A stretch of DNA of 39,620 nucleotides from Deinococcales bacterium (GTDB taxonomy: Bacteria; Deinococcota; Deinococci; Deinococcales; JAAFIG01): NCBI GenBank assembly GCA_043778225.1, contig JAYWGM010000019.1:1-39620 (forward strand), in the 5' to 3' direction. The number at the start of each line of letters is the position of its first letter. The stretch's first letter is position 1. Of this stretch, positions 6,001 to 15,000 are shown one piece after another. A program made the position numbers.

Positions 6001-9000
6001 CCAAGTTATCGTCCACAATTTTAGGGTTCTGGTCTTTCTCGCGGAAGACATAGAGGTCGGTGAGGTTTAGACTGCGGGCTTTCATATCGTTTTCGCCGTC
6101 GTCATGGTCGCTGGCTCGAGTGATGGCAAAAATTCCAAGGGCGACGGTCAGGATGGTCAGGACAAATTTGAGTGGGGTTTTCATGGTTTCTCCAATACAT
6201 AGGGGTTAAGGGCAATAAAAAGCCAGACACATCAAAATGTGCATTCGCAAAGGTAAATCACCTCCTTAGAACTGGGTTATTCCTATATAGTTTTACGCAC
6301 CAACTTTAGCAATTGGATGTGGCAACTCAATCAGAATGTAATCGGGTTCGCAGACCAACAACCTAGGATTCGAGCAGGCAGATTCGCTGTTGGTCTTGCC
6401 GTTAAATCGCTGTCCAACCACCATCAACTGCTAAAGTATGTCCCGTCACAAAGCCAGCCGCGCTCGAGGCTAAAAAAACGCACGCACCAAGCATATCCTC
6501 GACTGTGGCAATTCGCCCAAGTGGAATACGGCGCTCAAGGTCAGCTTTTATTTCGGGCTGCGAAAAGGTTTGTTCGGTCAGTGGCGTAAGCACAAAAGTT
6601 GGCGCGATGGCATTGACCGTAATTCCATGCTTTGCCCACTCGAGCGCCAAAACTCGAGTCTGGTTAATTAACCCCGCTTTGGCACTGCAATACGCCGCCC
6701 GTTGATAATAGCCAATCAGCCCATTTTGCGAAGCGATGTTAATAATTCGCCCACCAAGTCCTCGAGCAATCATCCCTTGACCAATGGCTTGCGAAACAAA
6801 AAATGCACCTTTGAGGTTGGTGTCTACCACCAAATCCCAGTTTTCTTCGGTTACATCGGTCGCCCACTGCACCCGATTTACCCCAGCATTATTGACCAGA
6901 ATGTCTACATCTCCAGCTTCGAGTGCCAGATTTTTGCACTGTGCCACCGACTGGACATCGAGTGCCAAGGCTGTGGCTTTACGCCCAAAAGCGTGTACAA
7001 GCTCAAGCGTGGCTTGGGTGGTCTCGAGTTTATCTGGCAATTCAGTAATGATGATGTCTGCACCGTGGGCAGCCAATGCCACCGCAAAGCCCTGACCAAG
7101 CCCACCAGAAGCACCAGTCACTAGAGCAGTTTTACCGTACAAAGAAAAATTTGGAATGTTCATAATTGGCAGTTTAACCGCAATTGCTTGTTTCACCTCG
7201 AGAACCTAATAGAACCCGTTTGACATCTCAGCTAAGGATTTGTCCGTGTTTGCGTTAAGATGCAGTTTTAATACCCTGAGGCTTGCCTCGGTGACTTTTT
7301 ATTCAAATTCCTAAGTATCTCCCGCCTACATTTTAGAATTTTCAAAAAGCGTCAATTCTGTCATTACGGCGGCAGATACGCTGTCCTTACTCCCGTTGGT
7401 CGGAAATGTTTTAGCAAAGAACTCTAAAACATTTCGGGGTTGTACTTAGAACTCGCCGCGTGCGAAGCTCGAGATGATGTTTGGTGCGCTGGTATCAAAG
7501 CCGCAAATGTCAAGCATTCCAGCGTCTTTTGGATCGGCAATGCTAAATTGCGTGGCGGTCATGCCCACCACCACCAGCCGTGCTGCAATGCCCATGGAAT
7601 CACGGTATCGGCGCAAGGCTTCAAAGGGGTGTACCTTACCAAAGTACGTTTCGTTATCGGTGTAAATCACGAATACATCGGCTTGTACGCCTTTCTCGAG
7701 CGCCCAGAGCATTGGTAAAGCACAATCTGTACCACCGAATGATTGGTTTTGAGTCTTCTTGAGTGCAGTCTCGAGAGAATCGCCTGCGCGGATTCCCACG
7801 TCGCGGAAAGTATCCGCAAAGCCCATGATGTGCGAATTCTTTTCGCTGCGAAGGGTGAGCATTGCCATGGCGGTGCTGGCAAGGTTTGGGGTGAGACCGT
7901 TTACGCCAGCGATGTTGCCCCATGTCATTGAACCTGAAATATCCAAGCCCAATACAAAGCGCTTGTTGGCAGGTGTAATCGTACCAAACGAAGTATAGAA
8001 CGCCTTCTCGAGCGCATCCACAATTTGTGATACGACTACCCAAGTACCATCGCCTTTGATGCTGCGTCCGCCTTTGTACACCAGCATGGCTTTTAGAGCA
8101 TCAATTGGATGGATTCGTCCTTTTCGCAAACTTTCGGCATCGGTGACTCGAGCAACAATTTGTCCAATCACATCCCATGCACCCGGCACAAGTACCTCGT
8201 GCTTGCCAAGATTGCCAAGGTTACGCAGTGTCCAAGTCAAACCGTTGTTCTCGAGTGCAGTGCGGTAGACTTTTTCACCTCGAGCTTCAGTGGGAATGGC
8301 TTCAATAGGCAACTTGTATTCGTGCATGATGGCGGCAGCACTCTTATCGGTTTTTGCCTCGAGCGCCAGGATATGACCACGCACCATGTTCAGCGCGGCA
8401 TCCTCAGACTCGAGAACACCATCCACAAGGTACTTGAACAACGCATTTCGGGTCGCGTCGCTGGTCTTTGGGTGCGAGAGGCGCAAAGCATCGGCTTGAG
8501 TCCAACCATCTCGAGACTTGTACTTGACAGCCCAGAGTGCCAGTTTCTCGAGTGGCATATGCTCGTAGATTTTTGCCACGCCGCTACGGGTCAGACGACC
8601 CCAACCGCCGAACAATTGTACAAACTCGAGGAAGTGCAACATATGCGTACCAGTTCGCGCCACTTCAGGCAGGGCATCCCAAGCTGCTTTACGAGTCGCA
8701 GAATCCACCGAGAGCTTCGCCACGGCTGCAAGTGCCACAAGAGTAGGCTCTGGCTTTGGAGCGCGGTTGTAACGTGCTACATCAAGAATAATCTCGAGGG
8801 CAGTAGCACCTTCAAGGGTCGCAAAATCGCGCACGAAATCGGTCTCGAGCTTGGTTTGACGCGCTTCGGTGGTGTAAAATGTACCACCCTCAGTTCCTAA
8901 AATTAAAAATCGGAGGAAACGAGTTGCATCCGAAACCGCGAAGACAAAACCGAGGGTGTTGTTTTGCACTTGGTCGGCTCGAGCCTTGAGAATTTGCGAG

Positions 9001-12000: not shown

Positions 12001-15000
12001 ACCCGCATTCTCTGTTTGGAAGACAGCCATCCTAAGCCGTTGGATGACAACTGCATAAAGCCCTTATTCATGTGGCACAACATAAAGCGGTGTGTGCCAT
12101 TTGCTCCCGCTCGAGCAAATGCAAAATAAGGGTGGTGACCCCACGTTGTGCGGGGTTTGGAGCAGAAGGACAGGTTTCGCACCTGCGTCTCACCTCGGTT
12201 GAGGTGCATCTTGCTGTTTAGAAGACTTCTGCATGGTGGGTTCTCTCGAATTTGAATCGAGACCTCGACGATTAAAAGTCGTCTGCTCTGCCAGTTGAGC
12301 TAAAAACCCATGTGGGGCTGATTAAACCCCATTTTGGTGATCTCGAGGAGAATTGAACTCCTGTCTGTCGGGTGAAAACCGCCTATCCTAAACCATTAGA
12401 CGACGAGACCATGTGGAAGGAAAGTTGGGATTTGAACCCAAAATAACAGCTTCAAAGGCTGTTGAGTTGCCAGTTACTCCACTTTCCTATTTTGGACTCG
12501 AGCAAGGTTTGTAGCACAGTAAAAAACGACTCGAGAATACCTCGAGTTTACAGGATTTGAACCTGTTCTCCTTTGGGGATTTACCGATAACTGTGTTACT
12601 TCGGCTCGAGCAAAAACTGGTCGAGAGACTTGGAATTGAACCAAGACTTACTGTGCTTCAGACAATCGTGCAGACCAACTACACCATCTCTCGTTTTGGG
12701 TGCGGTGATGGGAGTTGAACCCATCAATCGAGCTTATGAGACTCGAGGCATCACCGGACGCACACCGCATTAAAACTGGTCGAAGATGATGGAATCGAAC
12801 CATCGTTGCCTGCATATCAGACAGGTGTCTTACCTTTAGACGAATCTTCGTTTCTCCTCGAGTTGTTTGGAGGTAATTCTCGAGGGGTGCGTTTATAAAA
12901 CGCTCTGGTCGGCACGGCAAGGGTCGAACTTGCGGCTTCTGCTTTGTAAGAGCAGCACTCATACCACTGAGTTACGCGCCGTTAAACTCGAGGCGGTCAA
13001 GCGCCGTACTCTCGAGCATTGGTGGAAATGATCGGATTTGAACCGATAACCTTCGCTGTGCAAAAGCGCTGCTCTCCCGTTGAGCTACAATCCCATGTTG
13101 GGAACGGGTGTTCCCTTTGGTCGAGCGTGTAAGAATTGAACTTACCTAATGTCCTGTTTCCAAAACAGGAGACCCTCCTTGAGTCTGACGCTCGAGATAA
13201 GATTCGGATAGGAATTGAACCTATGACCTTTGGCTTCGCATACCAATGCTCGTTTCCACTGAGCTACCGAATCAAGTGATAGTGCTGTGGTGAACCGAGC
13301 AGGACTTGAACCTGCGACTTCCATGTTAGAAGCATGGCACTCTACTCCACTGAGTTATCGGTTCGTGAAACCCATGTATTCACTGGTTCATGTGGTGAAT
13401 CGGGCAGGACTCGAACCTGCAACTTCCACGTTCGAAGCGTGGCACTCTGTCCTTTGAGTTACCGATTCATGATGCTCGAGCAAGTGAGTACAGCACGACA
13501 ATATTTTCAAGATAATCGTGTTGCTTCGGCTCGAGATGGGTACTGCAAACAAGTGGATTCTTGAGGCGTTTTAATCTGGGAAAGAGATAAGCCTCGAGAT
13601 TCGGCTCGCAGTTATATGGCGGTTCTAACGGGAATCGAACCCGTATTGCCTGAGAGACAGTCAAGCATCGTAGCCGTTGGAACATAGAACCATTTCATGG
13701 TGTCAAACACAGACCTATGGCTGACTCGGTAGGGATCGAACCTACGACATCCTGATTAACAGTCAGGCGCTCTACCTCTAAGCTACAAGTCAAAACTGGT
13801 GGATAGAGAGGGATTTGAACCCCCAGTGTTTTTCAACGTCTGATCTACAGTCAGGTGCAATACCATTATGCGATCTACCCTTAATTTGCTCGAGAGTTGT
13901 ACGCCCCTGAGCGTGTTCGCCTCAAGAATAATCGTGATGCGCCGCACAGCACATAAATTCACGTTTTCTTGAAGAAGAAAAATTTGGCATTCGAGTTGTC
14001 AAAGTATACGCTCGAGAACGAGTTCTAGTCGTCGCAAGCAGTTTGGGTGCATTTTTAGCTTCTCGAGGACACGAATTCTCGAGTTGCGTACACCTGTGGG
14101 TTCATCGTCGGGAATCGCACCCGAGTTTCTAGGGTCACAACCTAGCGTCTTGTCTACTGGACGACAACGAACATAATTTGTGCGGTACAAAAAATTTGAG
14201 CCTATCCATTGCGGTTAGGCTCAAAAGAGTATGCCTGTTCCGCCTTACCTAATACGATTTTCCAAAATACTCGAGAAGCTACGACCTTGCCAATTGCCCT
14301 GTCCTAAATCTGAGTGATAACCGAGGTTACGCAATTTCAGATTGGCACAATCGCTTGCCCGACTCGGGCGTGTGGCGTATTGTTTTGTGGGGTTTATAAA
14401 GTTCATAAATTTCTCCGATTCGAGGTCTTTGGTCTCGAGGGTCAGGTGTTGTTTCCTCGAGCAGCATCGTACCGAGCCGTTTGGGTCTTGTCATGCGTCG
14501 TTTTGCGTAGCAGGAGCTAAGCCATTTAGCAGAGGGCAAGATAAGAAGGTAAAAGGGTTAAAACGTTAAAAAGCACCTCCTGCTCTTACCTTTTTACCTT
14601 TTGACCTTTTTACCCTATGCTTTTCCCCTCGAGTAAGTGTTTGACTGCATCCTGAACGCGGCGCAACGGATAATAGGCGGCGTTGCGGCGTTGACGCAGC
14701 AGGCTCTCGCCAACCAAGCGCGGCACAAAACCATCTTTTAGCTCGAGAATACGGGCTGGGGTTTCGCCGTTCAAATGCTCAATTAGCACAGCCGTTAAAG
14801 CCCTTGTCAGGGTCGTGGCTTCGCTGCCAACCGTAGCAGCAAGCTCAAGCGTATTTTGGTTGTGGCGCAGGTATAAACCCATTTCGTCTAAGCACTCTTG
14901 GTCTTGGCGAATTTCGCTGATGTCCCAAGTTTCACCGTGCTGTGGCTCGAGTTTAGAAGCATTTTGCGCCAATTCAATTAAGGCTTTTATTCGCTGGCTG

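Follow-up and report, generated by a model that had tools for sequence, protein, structure and literature searches.

A tRNA array interleaved with Y RNAs, including Y RNAs in a tRNA frame, upstream of rsr in a Deinococcales genome

The window analysed here covers positions 1-39,620 of contig JAYWGM010000019.1 of a 4.03-Mb Deinococcales MAG (GCA_043778225.1). A block on its minus strand consists of 26 tRNA genes with three hairpin Y RNAs between them, followed by three tRNA-shaped elements (A, B and C) and then rsr (Table 1). The identification of the last gene as rsr in the first-pass annotation was borne out by matches to both Ro60 domains, vWA_Ro60 (Pfam, 2.9e-65) and TROVE (7e-19), and the NCBIfam Rsr model scored 850.5 bits compared to a cut-off of 900.

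Table 1: Features of the rsr locus, with coordinates in the window.
Feature	Position	Strand	Description	Evidence
rsr (Ro60 orthologue), 530 aa	7446..9038	-	ATG at 9038, preceded by Shine-Dalgarno GGAGGG	
Element C	9101..9184	-	decayed copy; 8-bp terminal stem and T-like arm kept, T run behind	fold
Element B	9212..9340	-	acceptor stem with G3:U70, D arm, T arm, encoded ACCA	
Element A	9353..9476	-	7-bp acceptor stem, D arm, internal two-part arm, small extra hairpin, T arm	
Two small ORFs, 88 and 73 aa	9484..9968	-	between last tRNA and element A	
tRNA array	9937..14171	-	26 genes, 19 amino acids, no Thr	ARAGORN, Rfam tRNA
ORF, 296 aa	10301..11191	-	inside array, between tRNA-Leu(TAA) and tRNA-Cys	
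tRNA-like element	12158..12232	-	7-bp acceptor stem, 'CCA' end, 4-nt loop on middle arm	
Y RNA (Yrn1-like)	12497..12610	-	MFE fold with T arm	R1 39.9 bits; MFE z -4.13
Hairpin Y RNA (Yrn2-like)	13475..13535	-		R1 68.5 bits; MFE z -2.90
Hairpin Y RNA (Yrn2-like)	13544..13610	-	directly after tRNA-Asp; MFE hairpin	R1 63.8 bits; z -2.08
Candidate promoter TTGGCA-18-TATTTT	14264..14293	-	about 90 nt before tRNA-His	consensus match only

The co-oriented tRNA array described earlier was reproduced by ARAGORN, and the Rfam tRNA model exceeded its threshold on 23 of the 26 genes and additionally on element A; CCA is encoded in 20 of them. The genome contains 68 tRNA genes in total, and the 42 located outside the array cover all 20 amino acids; the array is supernumerary to this full housekeeping set. 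Its reported divergence was also found, as identities between array and housekeeping tRNAs for the same amino acid are 53-74%, and the four array Leu tRNAs are indeed short (73-78 nt compared to 82-87 nt for the housekeeping Leu tRNAs). No Pfam or NCBIfam family matched the 296-aa ORF, and the two small ORFs were without significant match in the same collections; a stretch homologous to the region of the small ORFs is also present in the loci L015 and L018. The tRNA-like element at 12158..12232, which was called neither by ARAGORN nor by Rfam, has a fold z of -3.50 and occupies the position of tRNA-Thr in the arrays of relatives, as judged by comparing array orders. Promoter-consensus sites in the region were not above chance (10 versus 8.5 in shuffles), and no convincing promoter was detected. 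Reading of the sequence also revealed a terminator-like hairpin directly upstream of tRNA-His.

Within the family, rsr is present in 8 of 19 genomes, the same count as obtained before. All seven rsr-positive relatives carry a co-oriented array upstream of rsr, which in three of them ends at a contig end, and the gene order of the array is conserved over three genera. In the Deinococcus-like sister family, the rsr-linked clusters of tRNAs and Y RNAs are shorter (2-14 tRNAs), and they contain short Leu tRNAs as well, plus an Arg tRNA 82-83% identical to that of the array. One might argue for a horizontally acquired L-type tRNA array providing spare parts or decoys against tRNA-cleaving toxins, in which the linkage to rsr and Y RNAs would be secondary and without joint function. 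Such an origin would fit a supernumerary, divergent array that is patchily distributed in the family (8/19) and contains foreign ORFs at positions differing between genomes, as well as the induction of cyanobacterial L-arrays by translational stress and the sponge role proposed for their tRNAs (Santamaria-Gomez 2021, PMC8421152). However, the array never occurred without rsr in the eight genomes, and Y RNAs lie inside it and not at its end alone. Together with the order kept in three genera, the related clusters of the sister family and the lack of any array-level match in the plasmid and phage collections searched, this suggests that the tRNA-Y-rsr unit is ancient, has been retained by vertical descent and has expanded, and does not result from a recent fusion, and we consider the horizontal origin unlikely.

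The motif GAGCCGAAG-N5-12-RTTATC occurs three times in the 4.03-Mb genome, always on the minus strand and within the block, whereas the reversed pattern used as control did not occur at all. In an alignment of 14 hairpin sequences from 6 genomes, 88.5% of the cells were paired compared to 34-45% in slid control alignments, compensatory changes were detected at 11 of 18 pairs, and a bulged C with neighbouring G.U and A-U pairs was present in 14/14. In the hairpin at 13475..13535, these features are flanked by the lower stem CTCGAGC/GCTCGAG and the upper stem; its neighbour at 13544..13610 is a member of alignment A2. The palindrome CTCGAG, which is part of the lower stems in this family, is over-represented 27 times genome-wide. 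Nevertheless, the lower stem is not a palindrome artefact, since the sister family forms it as GGGC/GCCC without CTCGAG. The covariance model R1 matched exclusively the three array sites in the genome, one of which, the Yrn1-like RNA, had been left out of the seed; further non-seed copies were detected in arrays of relatives, and a hairpin was found 88 nt upstream of a Poribacteria rsr. The Yrn1-like RNA has the same terminal Ro60-binding helix as the other hairpins, with a T arm and a second hairpin in its loop, and has orthologues in L013 (6947-7029), L016 (5418-5525), L017 (9119-9241) and L018 (1785-1886). In the D. radiodurans-like G073, R1 identified one RNA on either side of tRNA-Asp, an arrangement (Y-tRNAAsp-Y) resembling the Yrn2-tRNAAsp-Yrn1 order published for D. 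radiodurans (Chen 2014, PMC4201824). The Rfam models miss the elements of the window, as noted before: Y_RNA gave no match at E<=10 and YrlA gave sub-threshold partial matches of 13.8-25 bits against a threshold of 69. The three hairpins, their covariation and the locus specificity of R1 clearly support the initial proposal that a tRNA array ending in rsr contains interspersed Y RNAs.

Elements A, B and C, located between the array and rsr, differ from these hairpins. The Rfam tRNA model aligned element A end to end as a 124-nt 'tRNA' (50.4 bits), in which 65 nt stand where the anticodon arm would be, and its MFE structure is a five-armed cloverleaf (z -2.59). Orthologues are present in L015, L006 and L018 (two copies in the latter), and among them the acceptor pair 6:67 changes from A-U to G-C. 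The Ro motif of A is divergent (GCCGTCG, not GCCGAAG), a T replacing the consensus A that is protected in Yrn1. Element B, scoring 113 bits with model R2, carries the canonical Ro60-binding helix with a closing loop of 6 nt, a 3-bp hairpin with a 7-nt loop and the T loop TGCAAAT, with G at the position of tRNA U55. The MFE structure of this single sequence is not a cloverleaf (z -1.67). RNAalifold on B and its orthologues (A1) yielded 35 pairs, 6 of them compensatory, exactly as reported in the first-pass annotation, and in the alignment of 13 type-B orthologues from two families (A4) 99.3% of the cells were paired compared to 38-53% in slid alignments. The 9 compensatory pairs of A4 affect the acceptor and T stems as well as the two parts of the Y helix. 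The D arm is kept in types A and B. Comparison of element C with L013 (4009-4141), L006 (1211-1317), L018 (7049-7184) and L014 (4448-4570) showed that it is without a D arm and that its lower-stem loop and GGGTTATC box have been deleted. Within the window, the full canonical Ro helix is present in B only, A being divergent and C degenerate. The earlier description of three complete tRNA frames, each with the Y-helix motif and encoded CCA, consequently had to be narrowed: the complete frame applies to A and B and not to the decayed copy C, the intact motif applies to B, and so does the encoded CCA, because A ends with A-ACA and C with C-CTT.

The decay of C and divergence of A, the further tRNA-like relic at 12158-12232 and the non-canonical T loop of B might be taken as signs of functionless, decaying tRNA pseudogenes that acquired a Y hairpin by chance. 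This is scarcely credible, as the frame types recur in two families, compensatory changes affect every type-B helix, the frames are confined to rsr loci, and in D. radiodurans the corresponding RNAs accumulate, are induced by UV and are precipitated together with Rsr (Chen 2014, PMC4201824). Similarly, the G3:U70 pair of B, found in 6/6 orthologues of its own family, the encoded ACCA and a 3' half aligning with the 3' end of the tmRNA consensus (20 bits) could suggest that B is charged with alanine and takes Rsr to the ribosome or EF-Tu. Alanine identity is not conserved, however, because the 3:70 pair varies over the 13 orthologues (GC 6, GU 5, AU 2), so that the invariance of G3:U70 claimed previously holds for the family and not for the order. 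Moreover, the tmRNA score is far below the threshold (20 versus 47 bits) and B of the window lacks U55, making charging with alanine highly improbable.

tRNA-framed elements were detected upstream of rsr in all 8 rsr-positive genomes of the family and at 21 of 22 loci of the sister family. A frame scan identified the latter and 7 of the 8 loci of the own family, the exception being L015, for which element A was recognized separately by orthologue comparison. The loop closing the framed Ro helix ranges from 3 to 105 nt with the helix kept throughout, and 13 of 19 internal arms fold alone into a two-part hairpin. Among the R2 matches listed, 18/18 longer than 115 nt fall in rsr-positive genomes, and those with coordinates are located 76 nt to about 1.1 kb upstream of rsr. 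The covariation over 13 type-B frames in two families and the similar rsr loci of the sister family argue strongly for Y RNAs built into a tRNA frame with the Ro60 helix as an internal arm, as had been suggested.

The D. radiodurans rsr locus encodes Yrn1 (RNA c), Yrn2 (RNA e), tRNA-Asp and the RNAs a, b and d (Chen et al. 2000, in Chen et al. 2014, PMC4201824). The genes of the last three lie upstream of rsr; these RNAs are UV-induced and bind Rsr more weakly than Yrn1, and whether they do so in the manner of Yrn1 was left undecided (Chen 2014, PMC4201824). The legend of Suppl. Fig. S3 in that paper indicates T arms for a and b and, for these RNAs in general, a possible GNCGAA motif. In G073, the terminal stems and 3' tails of two framed elements agree with those drawn for RNAs d and b, as does the length in the case of d (about 96 nt), and a third element, seen in the arm scan only, fits RNA a at the 3' end. 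These agreements bear out the earlier guess that RNAs a, b and d are framed and, judged by sequence comparison, indicate that the framed elements are homologous to RNAs expressed and bound by Rsr in D. radiodurans. For b and d, the mapped ends are those of the frame; RNA a as drawn overruns its frame at both ends, so that tRNA-like excision does not apply to all frames. In the text of Chen 2014 (PMC4201824) available to us, no statement was found that these RNAs represent whole tRNA frames with the Ro helix at the anticodon-arm position.

YrlA RNAs consist of Ro stem, V, T, closed acceptor stem-loop, D and Ro stem and resemble a circularly permuted tRNA (Chen 2014, PMC4201824; Wang et al. 2018, bioRxiv 10.1101/312249). 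The functional RNAs of the locus might likewise be ordinary permuted YrlA-type RNAs spanning two adjacent frames. The first frame would contribute a Ro strand, V hairpin and T arm, which would pair over the spacer with a D arm and Ro strand supplied by the second, and the frames themselves would serve as an evolutionary scaffold only. The best partial YrlA alignment (25 bits) is positioned on the A/B junction, covering the T arm of A, the spacer and the D arm of B. In G002, B is followed by an element D whose 3' strand is a better partner for the 5' Ro strand of B (-20.2 kcal/mol, with 9/9 upper-stem pairs by reading) than the 3' strand of B itself (-13.3 kcal/mol), and inter-element pairing was better in 4 of 10 neighbouring pairs. 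However, mean energies do not discriminate (intra -12.6, inter -14.0, any cross-type pair -12.3), a lone frame without neighbour in G010 shows its own compensatory change in the upper stem, and covariation over the 13 orthologues ties both strands within one element. As the mapped ends of RNAs b and d are frame ends, and dimeric-tRNA matches of this kind were dismissed as false positives in Chen 2014 (PMC4201824), RNAs spanning two frames appear very unlikely.

With a probability of roughly 0.75, we favour the interpretation that the block represents a stress-type RNA operon of Deinococcales, in which supernumerary tRNAs, Y RNAs including the framed ones, and the Rsr mRNA are carried on one transcript. 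A single long transcript would comprise the spare tRNA set together with several Y RNAs, with the mRNA of Rsr (Ro60) forming its 3' end. The tRNAs would punctuate this transcript, and RNase P acting at the 5' ends together with 3' trimming would release them as well as the hairpin Y RNAs encoded in the spacers; the framed Y RNAs would be excised as though they were tRNAs. Rsr presumably recognizes the conserved bulged helix, with GAGC-C-GA on one strand and UUGCUC on the other, which in the hairpin Y RNAs would be made by the two ends of the RNA and in the framed ones by a loop-closed internal arm at the anticodon-arm position. The remainder of the framed RNA (acceptor stem, D arm, small variable-type hairpin and T arm) may act as a tRNA-shaped, YrlA-like module. 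By analogy with D. radiodurans, the Y RNAs might gate Rsr and tether it to PNPase or a tRNA-binding partner, so that structured RNA that has been damaged is degraded, and the tRNA pool would be replenished from the spare tRNAs.

Y RNAs co-transcribed with a tRNA upstream of rsr have already been published for D. radiodurans, where Yrn2-tRNAAsp-Yrn1 forms a polycistronic precursor (Chen 2014, PMC4201824). That locus belongs to the same bacterial order and likewise has Y RNAs and tRNA(s) ahead of rsr in the same orientation, and the hairpin Y RNAs of the D. radiodurans-like and window loci keep both Ro60-binding helix strands. The two differ in tRNA number, with 26 in the window compared to one or two in G073, and in frame types, with A, B and C in the window and no type B in G073. 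The array itself resembles cyanobacterial L-arrays (PMC8421152) in its more than 20 co-oriented, supernumerary and divergent tRNA genes for nearly all amino acids, its patchy occurrence among relatives and the embedded protein genes. In contrast to these, it is interleaved with Y RNAs and closed by rsr; the available text of PMC8421152 contains no mention of Ro60, Rsr, TROVE or Y RNA, and places Deinococcus-Thermus among the phyla with accretive arrays only. By description, b7a-tRNA (Burroughs and Aravind 2016, via the Discussion of Wang 2018) is also among the closest known systems. YrlA (Rfam RF02553, compared for S. Typhimurium and M. smegmatis) and the framed RNAs both combine a Ro60-binding stem with a tRNA-like module of D, T, V and acceptor in the same cyclic order. 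In YrlA, the acceptor is closed by a loop, the RNA ends lie in the Ro stem, and the 5' strand alone of the Ro helix is recognizable, whereas in the framed RNAs the acceptor is open and would hold the RNA ends, the Ro stem is loop-closed, and both strands are recognizable. RNase P opens the YrlA of M. smegmatis, and CCA is added to this RNA (Wang et al. 2018, bioRxiv 10.1101/312249). As the cyclic order of the parts is identical, the framed RNAs appear to be the unpermuted and YrlA the circularly permuted form of one design, and the locus bears on the origin of Y RNAs from tRNAs.

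The minus strand of the window carries an array of 26 tRNA genes serving 19 amino acids, with Thr being absent (ARAGORN), 23 of which were confirmed by the Rfam tRNA model. Downstream of the array on the same strand lies rsr, encoding the Ro60 orthologue Rsr, which was identified by the Pfam domains vWA_Ro60 and TROVE and by the NCBIfam Rsr model (850.5 bits). With 26 genes in 4.2 kb, the array shows one hallmark of an L-array, a dense run of 20 or more tRNA genes beyond the housekeeping set. It is supernumerary since 42 further tRNAs on other contigs of the genome cover all 20 amino acids, the array copies are only 53–74% identical to same-amino-acid tRNAs elsewhere in the genome, and its four Leu tRNAs are shorter (73–78 nt compared to 82–87 nt for the housekeeping Leu tRNAs). 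Short rsr-linked tRNAs with Leu anticodons (73–78 nt, without the long variable arm) were observed both in the family of the source genome (f1) and in the Deinococcus-like sister family (f2), namely, in the f2 rsr loci L027, L028, L030, and L031 and in the window, suggesting a special class of operon tRNAs.

Features of the block and its surroundings in the window, with coordinates and strand
Feature	Position	Strand	Remarks
rsr	7446-9038	minus	
tRNA array	9937-14171	minus	26 tRNA genes
Hairpin Y RNA 1	13544-13610	minus	in array spacer; match to hairpin covariance model R1
Hairpin Y RNA 2	13475-13535	minus	in array spacer; match to R1
Hairpin Y RNA 3	12497-12610	minus	in array spacer; match to R1
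Frame A	9476-9353	minus	Rfam tRNA model end to end, 50.4 bits; 65 nt replace the anticodon arm
Frame B	9340-9212	minus	7-bp acceptor stem with G3:U70, D arm, T arm, encoded ACCA
Frame C	9184-9101	minus	8-bp terminal stem, T-like arm
Terminator-like hairpin with T run	14190-14222	minus	
tRNA-like element	12158-12232	minus	7-bp acceptor stem, encoded CCA, 4-nt middle-arm loop
Structured spacer	12055-12157	minus	from the tRNA-like relic to tRNA-Gly(TCC)
Short Leu tRNAs	11483-11923		
ORF of 296 aa	10301-11191	minus	within array
Small ORFs	9484-9968	minus	between last tRNA and framed RNAs

The gene rsr is patchily distributed in f1 (8 of 19 genomes), and in all seven rsr-bearing relatives it is preceded by a co-oriented array with the common order His-Tyr-Asn-Asp-Arg ... 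Ser-Trp-Ser, comprising 21–29 genes wherever the contig is long enough. All 22 rsr loci scanned in f2, the family holding the large Deinococcus-like genus g8, likewise have co-oriented tRNAs before rsr; their number varies from 2 to 14, short Leu tRNAs being among them. An Arg tRNA of these loci is 82–83% identical to that of the array, whereas the housekeeping Arg tRNAs of the source genome reach 64–71%.

Several further elements were observed within or next to the array. The terminator-like hairpin was recognized by reading the sequence and lies approximately 20 nt before tRNA-His. Scanning the region for promoter consensus sequences yielded no sites above chance, and three one-mismatch matches to the radiation/desiccation-response motif (a degenerate pattern) were detected in the window compared to 4.1 expected by chance, none of them near the array start. 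The tRNA-like element, called neither by ARAGORN nor by Rfam, occupies the place of tRNA-Thr(TGT) in the relatives. The adjoining spacer is predicted to adopt a multi-branch fold of −40.6 kcal/mol (z −5.4; none of 200 shuffled sequences did as well) and matched no Rfam family. The ORFs inside the block, including that of 296 aa, gave no Pfam or NCBIfam match, and insertions into the arrays of relatives are located elsewhere. The palindrome CTCGAG is hyper-iterated in the source genome (G+C content 48.7%) with 24,877 copies in 4.03 Mb, that is, one per 162 bp and 26.7 times the expectation. It is by far the commonest hexamer (256 copies in the window versus 5.8 in shuffles), whereas GGCGCC, GGGCCC, AGGCCT, and GACGTC occur in 1–3 copies versus approximately 840–930 expected. 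This pattern resembles cyanobacterial HIP1, here in a Deinococcales lineage; CTCGAG, 27-fold over-represented genome-wide, overlaps the lower stems (described below) in f1.

Each of the three hairpin Y RNAs consists of a 7-bp lower stem, a bulged C, G.U and A-U pairs, an internal loop, an upper stem, and a GTTATC-type box, which in two of the hairpins reads ATTATC or CTTATC. By inference, their helix is formed from the 5′ and 3′ termini of the molecule. The Ro-binding helix of metazoan Y RNAs contains a bulged C flanked by base pairs, and in motif and spacing the hairpins are similar to the end of vertebrate Y RNAs to which Ro binds. In bacterial Y RNAs the 5′-strand motif is GNCGAAN0-1G (Chen 2014, PMC4201824); GAGCCGAAG was found in hairpins 2 and 3 and in frame B; hairpin 1 carries GAGCCGAAT and frame A GAGCCGTCG. 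A search of the 4.03-Mb genome for the strict motif gave three occurrences, all of them inside the block. Both strands of the Y RNA helix are conserved, with a single bulged C between base pairs (Stein 2005 and Green 1998, as cited by Chen 2014, PMC4201824). Aligning 14 hairpins from six genomes demonstrated that 88.5% of the cells are paired compared to 34–45% with the partner columns slid, that both sides have changed in 11 of 18 pairs, and that the lower helix is 98.4% paired, with the bulged C and the adjacent G.U and A-U pairs present in all 14.

A covariance model of the hairpin Y RNAs (R1) matched exclusively the three window hairpins in the whole genome, and the Y elements all share the strand of rsr and lie no more than 5.2 kb upstream of it. 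R1 additionally detected non-seed copies in the array of every relative, a hairpin 88 nt upstream of rsr in a Poribacteria genome, and matches in 16 of the 22 f2 rsr loci (E ≤ 0.001). The Rfam Y_RNA model gave no match in the window at E ≤ 10. As a positive control, R1 recovered two RNAs flanking tRNA-Asp upstream of rsr in the D. radiodurans-like genome G073. This layout equals that of Yrn2, tRNA-Asp, and Yrn1 in D. radiodurans, which are transcribed as a single precursor (Chen 2014, PMC4201824). RNAs of the Yrn1/Yrn2 type are characterized by Rsr binding and by Rsr-dependent accumulation, the binding being known only for the D. radiodurans homologues (Chen 2014, PMC4201824). Folding predicts for hairpin 3 a T arm in the loop, like that of Yrn1.

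Between the last array tRNA and rsr lie all three tRNA-framed elements (A, B, and C), in which a Ro60-binding helix takes the place of the anticodon arm of a tRNA body. A and B possess the 7-bp acceptor stem, D arm, and T arm of a tRNA, and C is without a D arm. Where positions 27–43 of a tRNA form a 5-bp anticodon stem and its 7-nt loop, the framed elements contain a two-part arm of 53–150 nt, after which comes just a 3-bp hairpin whose 7-nt loop reads CU..A; owing to this replacement they are not decoding tRNAs. The helix is not built from the RNA ends as in Y RNAs but is internal and closed by a loop; in B the 3′ strand of the Ro helix comes first and the 5′ strand second, with 6 nt between them. 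In C, the lower-stem loop and the GGGTTATC box seen in its orthologues have been lost, and only B is canonical among the window frames. The single-sequence minimum free energy structure of B is not a cloverleaf. Identity as tmRNA, which would combine tRNA-Ala-like ends with pseudoknots and a tag reading frame, was rejected, as the Rfam score was 20 bits versus a threshold of 47 with the 3′ end alone aligned, and ARAGORN calls no tmRNA. The small ORFs preceding the frames have counterparts in L015 (2694–3192) and L018 (5800–6520). Relatives carry an extra ORF upstream of them, which by eye appears to begin like a BrnT-type toxin; the window retains only the downstream partner.

Comparison of the eight rsr-bearing f1 genomes revealed four frame types, A, B, C, and D, the last being class-II-like and absent from the window, with one to five frames per genome, always directly upstream of rsr. 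Framed elements are also present in 21 of the 22 f2 rsr loci, the scan having yielded 53 candidates including three evident false positives. The loop closing the Ro helix ranges from 3 to 105 nt, the helix itself being kept, and 13 of 19 internal arms fold alone into the two-part hairpin. In genus g5 (L014, 4700–4790; L016, 3490–3580) the closing loop of B is approximately 105 nt long and has its own long stem (GTTAAAATCTTA.ACC / GGTCTAAGTTTTAAC).

RNAalifold predicted 35 pairs for six B orthologues, 6 of them compensatory. An alignment of 13 compact type-B orthologues from both families (A4), which omits the long-loop f1 copies L014, L016, and L017 and the insert-bearing f2 copies L042 and L048, demonstrated pairing in 99.3% of the cells compared to 38–53% after sliding. 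Nine compensatory pairs fall in the T stem, in the acceptor stem, and in each of the two parts of the Ro helix; pairing over the 13 sequences is 100% for the acceptor, D, and T helices. The bulged C and the G.U and A-U pairs are kept in all 13, one A-U cell excepted, whereas G3:U70 is not conserved across the order. The small hairpin that follows GTTAYC has CGA...TCG in f1, and most f2 copies have CCA...TGG instead, a difference that we read as a compensatory change hidden by the gap placement of MAFFT. A covariance model of the type-B frames (R2) was run on 151 genomes of the order. As ordinary 76-nt tRNAs also score 58–64 bits, matches in 151 of 151 genomes are meaningless and only those longer than 115 nt are informative. 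Among the matches listed, 18 of 18 of this length fall in rsr-positive genomes, 76 nt to approximately 1.1 kb upstream of rsr where the coordinates of rsr are known; stricter filters failed to pick up the long-loop B copies of G017 and G018. The locus of tRNA array, Y RNAs, and frames is real and conserved.

A connection to known transcripts is provided by the RNAs a, b, and d of D. radiodurans, which are located upstream of rsr, are raised by UV, and show weaker Rsr binding (Chen 2014, PMC4201824). Known since 2000, they have been left unclassified, and the legend of Suppl. Fig. S3 notes a possible GNCGAA motif in all three and, for RNAs a and b, a T arm (Chen 2014, PMC4201824). In G073 the frame scan found two frames upstream of rsr, both recovered in the larger locus, and a third was found by the arm scan only. 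Compared to the drawings in Suppl. Fig. S3 of Chen 2014 (PMC4201824), available as garbled PDF text, element 1 (96 nt including the outer pair and 3′ tail, GGUGGGCG.../...CGCCCACC-CC) corresponds to RNA d as drawn, element 2, a class-II frame ending in ...CUGUCCCC-ACCC, to RNA b, and the end of element 3, ...GAUGAGGACGA, fits the 3′ end of RNA a. These matches indicate that the framed elements are homologues of real, expressed, Rsr-associated RNAs. Our analysis offers a structural reading for RNAs a, b, and d that is directly testable in a genetically tractable organism. We did not find a whole tRNA frame with the canonical helix at the anticodon-arm place stated for them, though the reviews of 2018–2020 and Burroughs and Aravind 2016 may state it.

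Judging from the work on D. radiodurans and the anatomy of the locus, array, Y RNAs, and rsr are probably co-transcribed, the frames would be processed in the manner of tRNAs, Rsr would bind their internal helix, and the system may serve turnover of damaged RNA together with resupply of tRNAs.

The YrlA RNAs, described as resembling a circularly permuted tRNA, run from Ro stem through V, T arm, a closed acceptor stem-loop, and D arm back to the Ro stem (Chen 2014, PMC4201824). The order in the frames is acceptor, D, Ro 3′ strand, loop, Ro 5′ strand, V-like hairpin, T, and acceptor. The cyclic order is therefore the same, but the frames are open at the acceptor end and YrlA at the Ro stem; the YrlA arrangement, in which the T arm precedes the D arm and a closed acceptor stem-loop separates the two, does not occur in the frames. 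The Rfam YrlA model (RF02553) did not reach its gathering score of 69 bits, the best matches being 25.0, 22.3, and 19.1 bits. One partial match spans the A/B junction, covering the T arm of A, the 12-nt spacer, and the D arm of B; we rejected this sub-threshold match as a dimeric-tRNA artefact, a kind of match discarded by Chen 2014 (PMC4201824). Mean pairing energies of the Ro strands (−12.6 kcal/mol within, −14.0 kcal/mol between elements, and −12.3 kcal/mol for any cross-type combination) do not discriminate between pairing within one frame and pairing across two. The frame is favoured as the unit by the single frame of genome G010, the covariation within the element in A4, and the ends mapped for RNAs b and d.

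It is conceivable, at roughly one chance in four, that the tRNA-framed RNAs represent the ancestral form of bacterial Y RNAs, from which both the permuted YrlA and the hairpins were derived. Y RNAs would then have originated within tRNA operons, from tRNAs in which the anticodon arm was extended into a Ro60-binding helix; tandem frames such as A and B, 12 nt apart, could have given rise to YrlA by reading one Ro strand into that of the next frame, and loss of the tRNA body might have left plain hairpin Y RNAs. A dimeric tRNA is also the starting point of the model for YrlA origin in the Discussion of Wang 2018 (10.1101/312249), which must assume that the Ro60-binding stem arose from leftover sequence. 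Descent from tandem frames would amount to this model with the Ro-binding sequence already present and, if true, would make the Deinococcales operon a living series of all three Y RNA stages. The locus thereby bears on why bacterial Y RNAs look like tRNAs and on their origin, as it presents whole tRNA frames with a canonical Ro60-binding helix in tandem beside hairpin Y RNAs and real tRNAs, across two families.

Santamaria-Gomez 2021 (PMC8421152) lists Deinococcus-Thermus among the phyla without long arrays, and Ro60 is not mentioned in the available text of that paper; our literature search found no paper combining "tRNA array" and "Ro60". In our reading, an old tRNA-Y RNA-rsr unit was expanded to give the array of 26 genes. 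L-arrays are characterized by horizontal spread and by induction under translational stress. Here the distribution is patchy (8 of 19 genomes), but searching plasmid and phage collections with the array returned single-tRNA matches only and none at the array level, and the sister family has shorter clusters linked to rsr. The locus adds to Deinococcus-type Y RNA loci and to tRNA arrays, both known kinds, and ties long spare tRNA arrays, the role of which is debated, to the Ro60 RNA-quality-control system.
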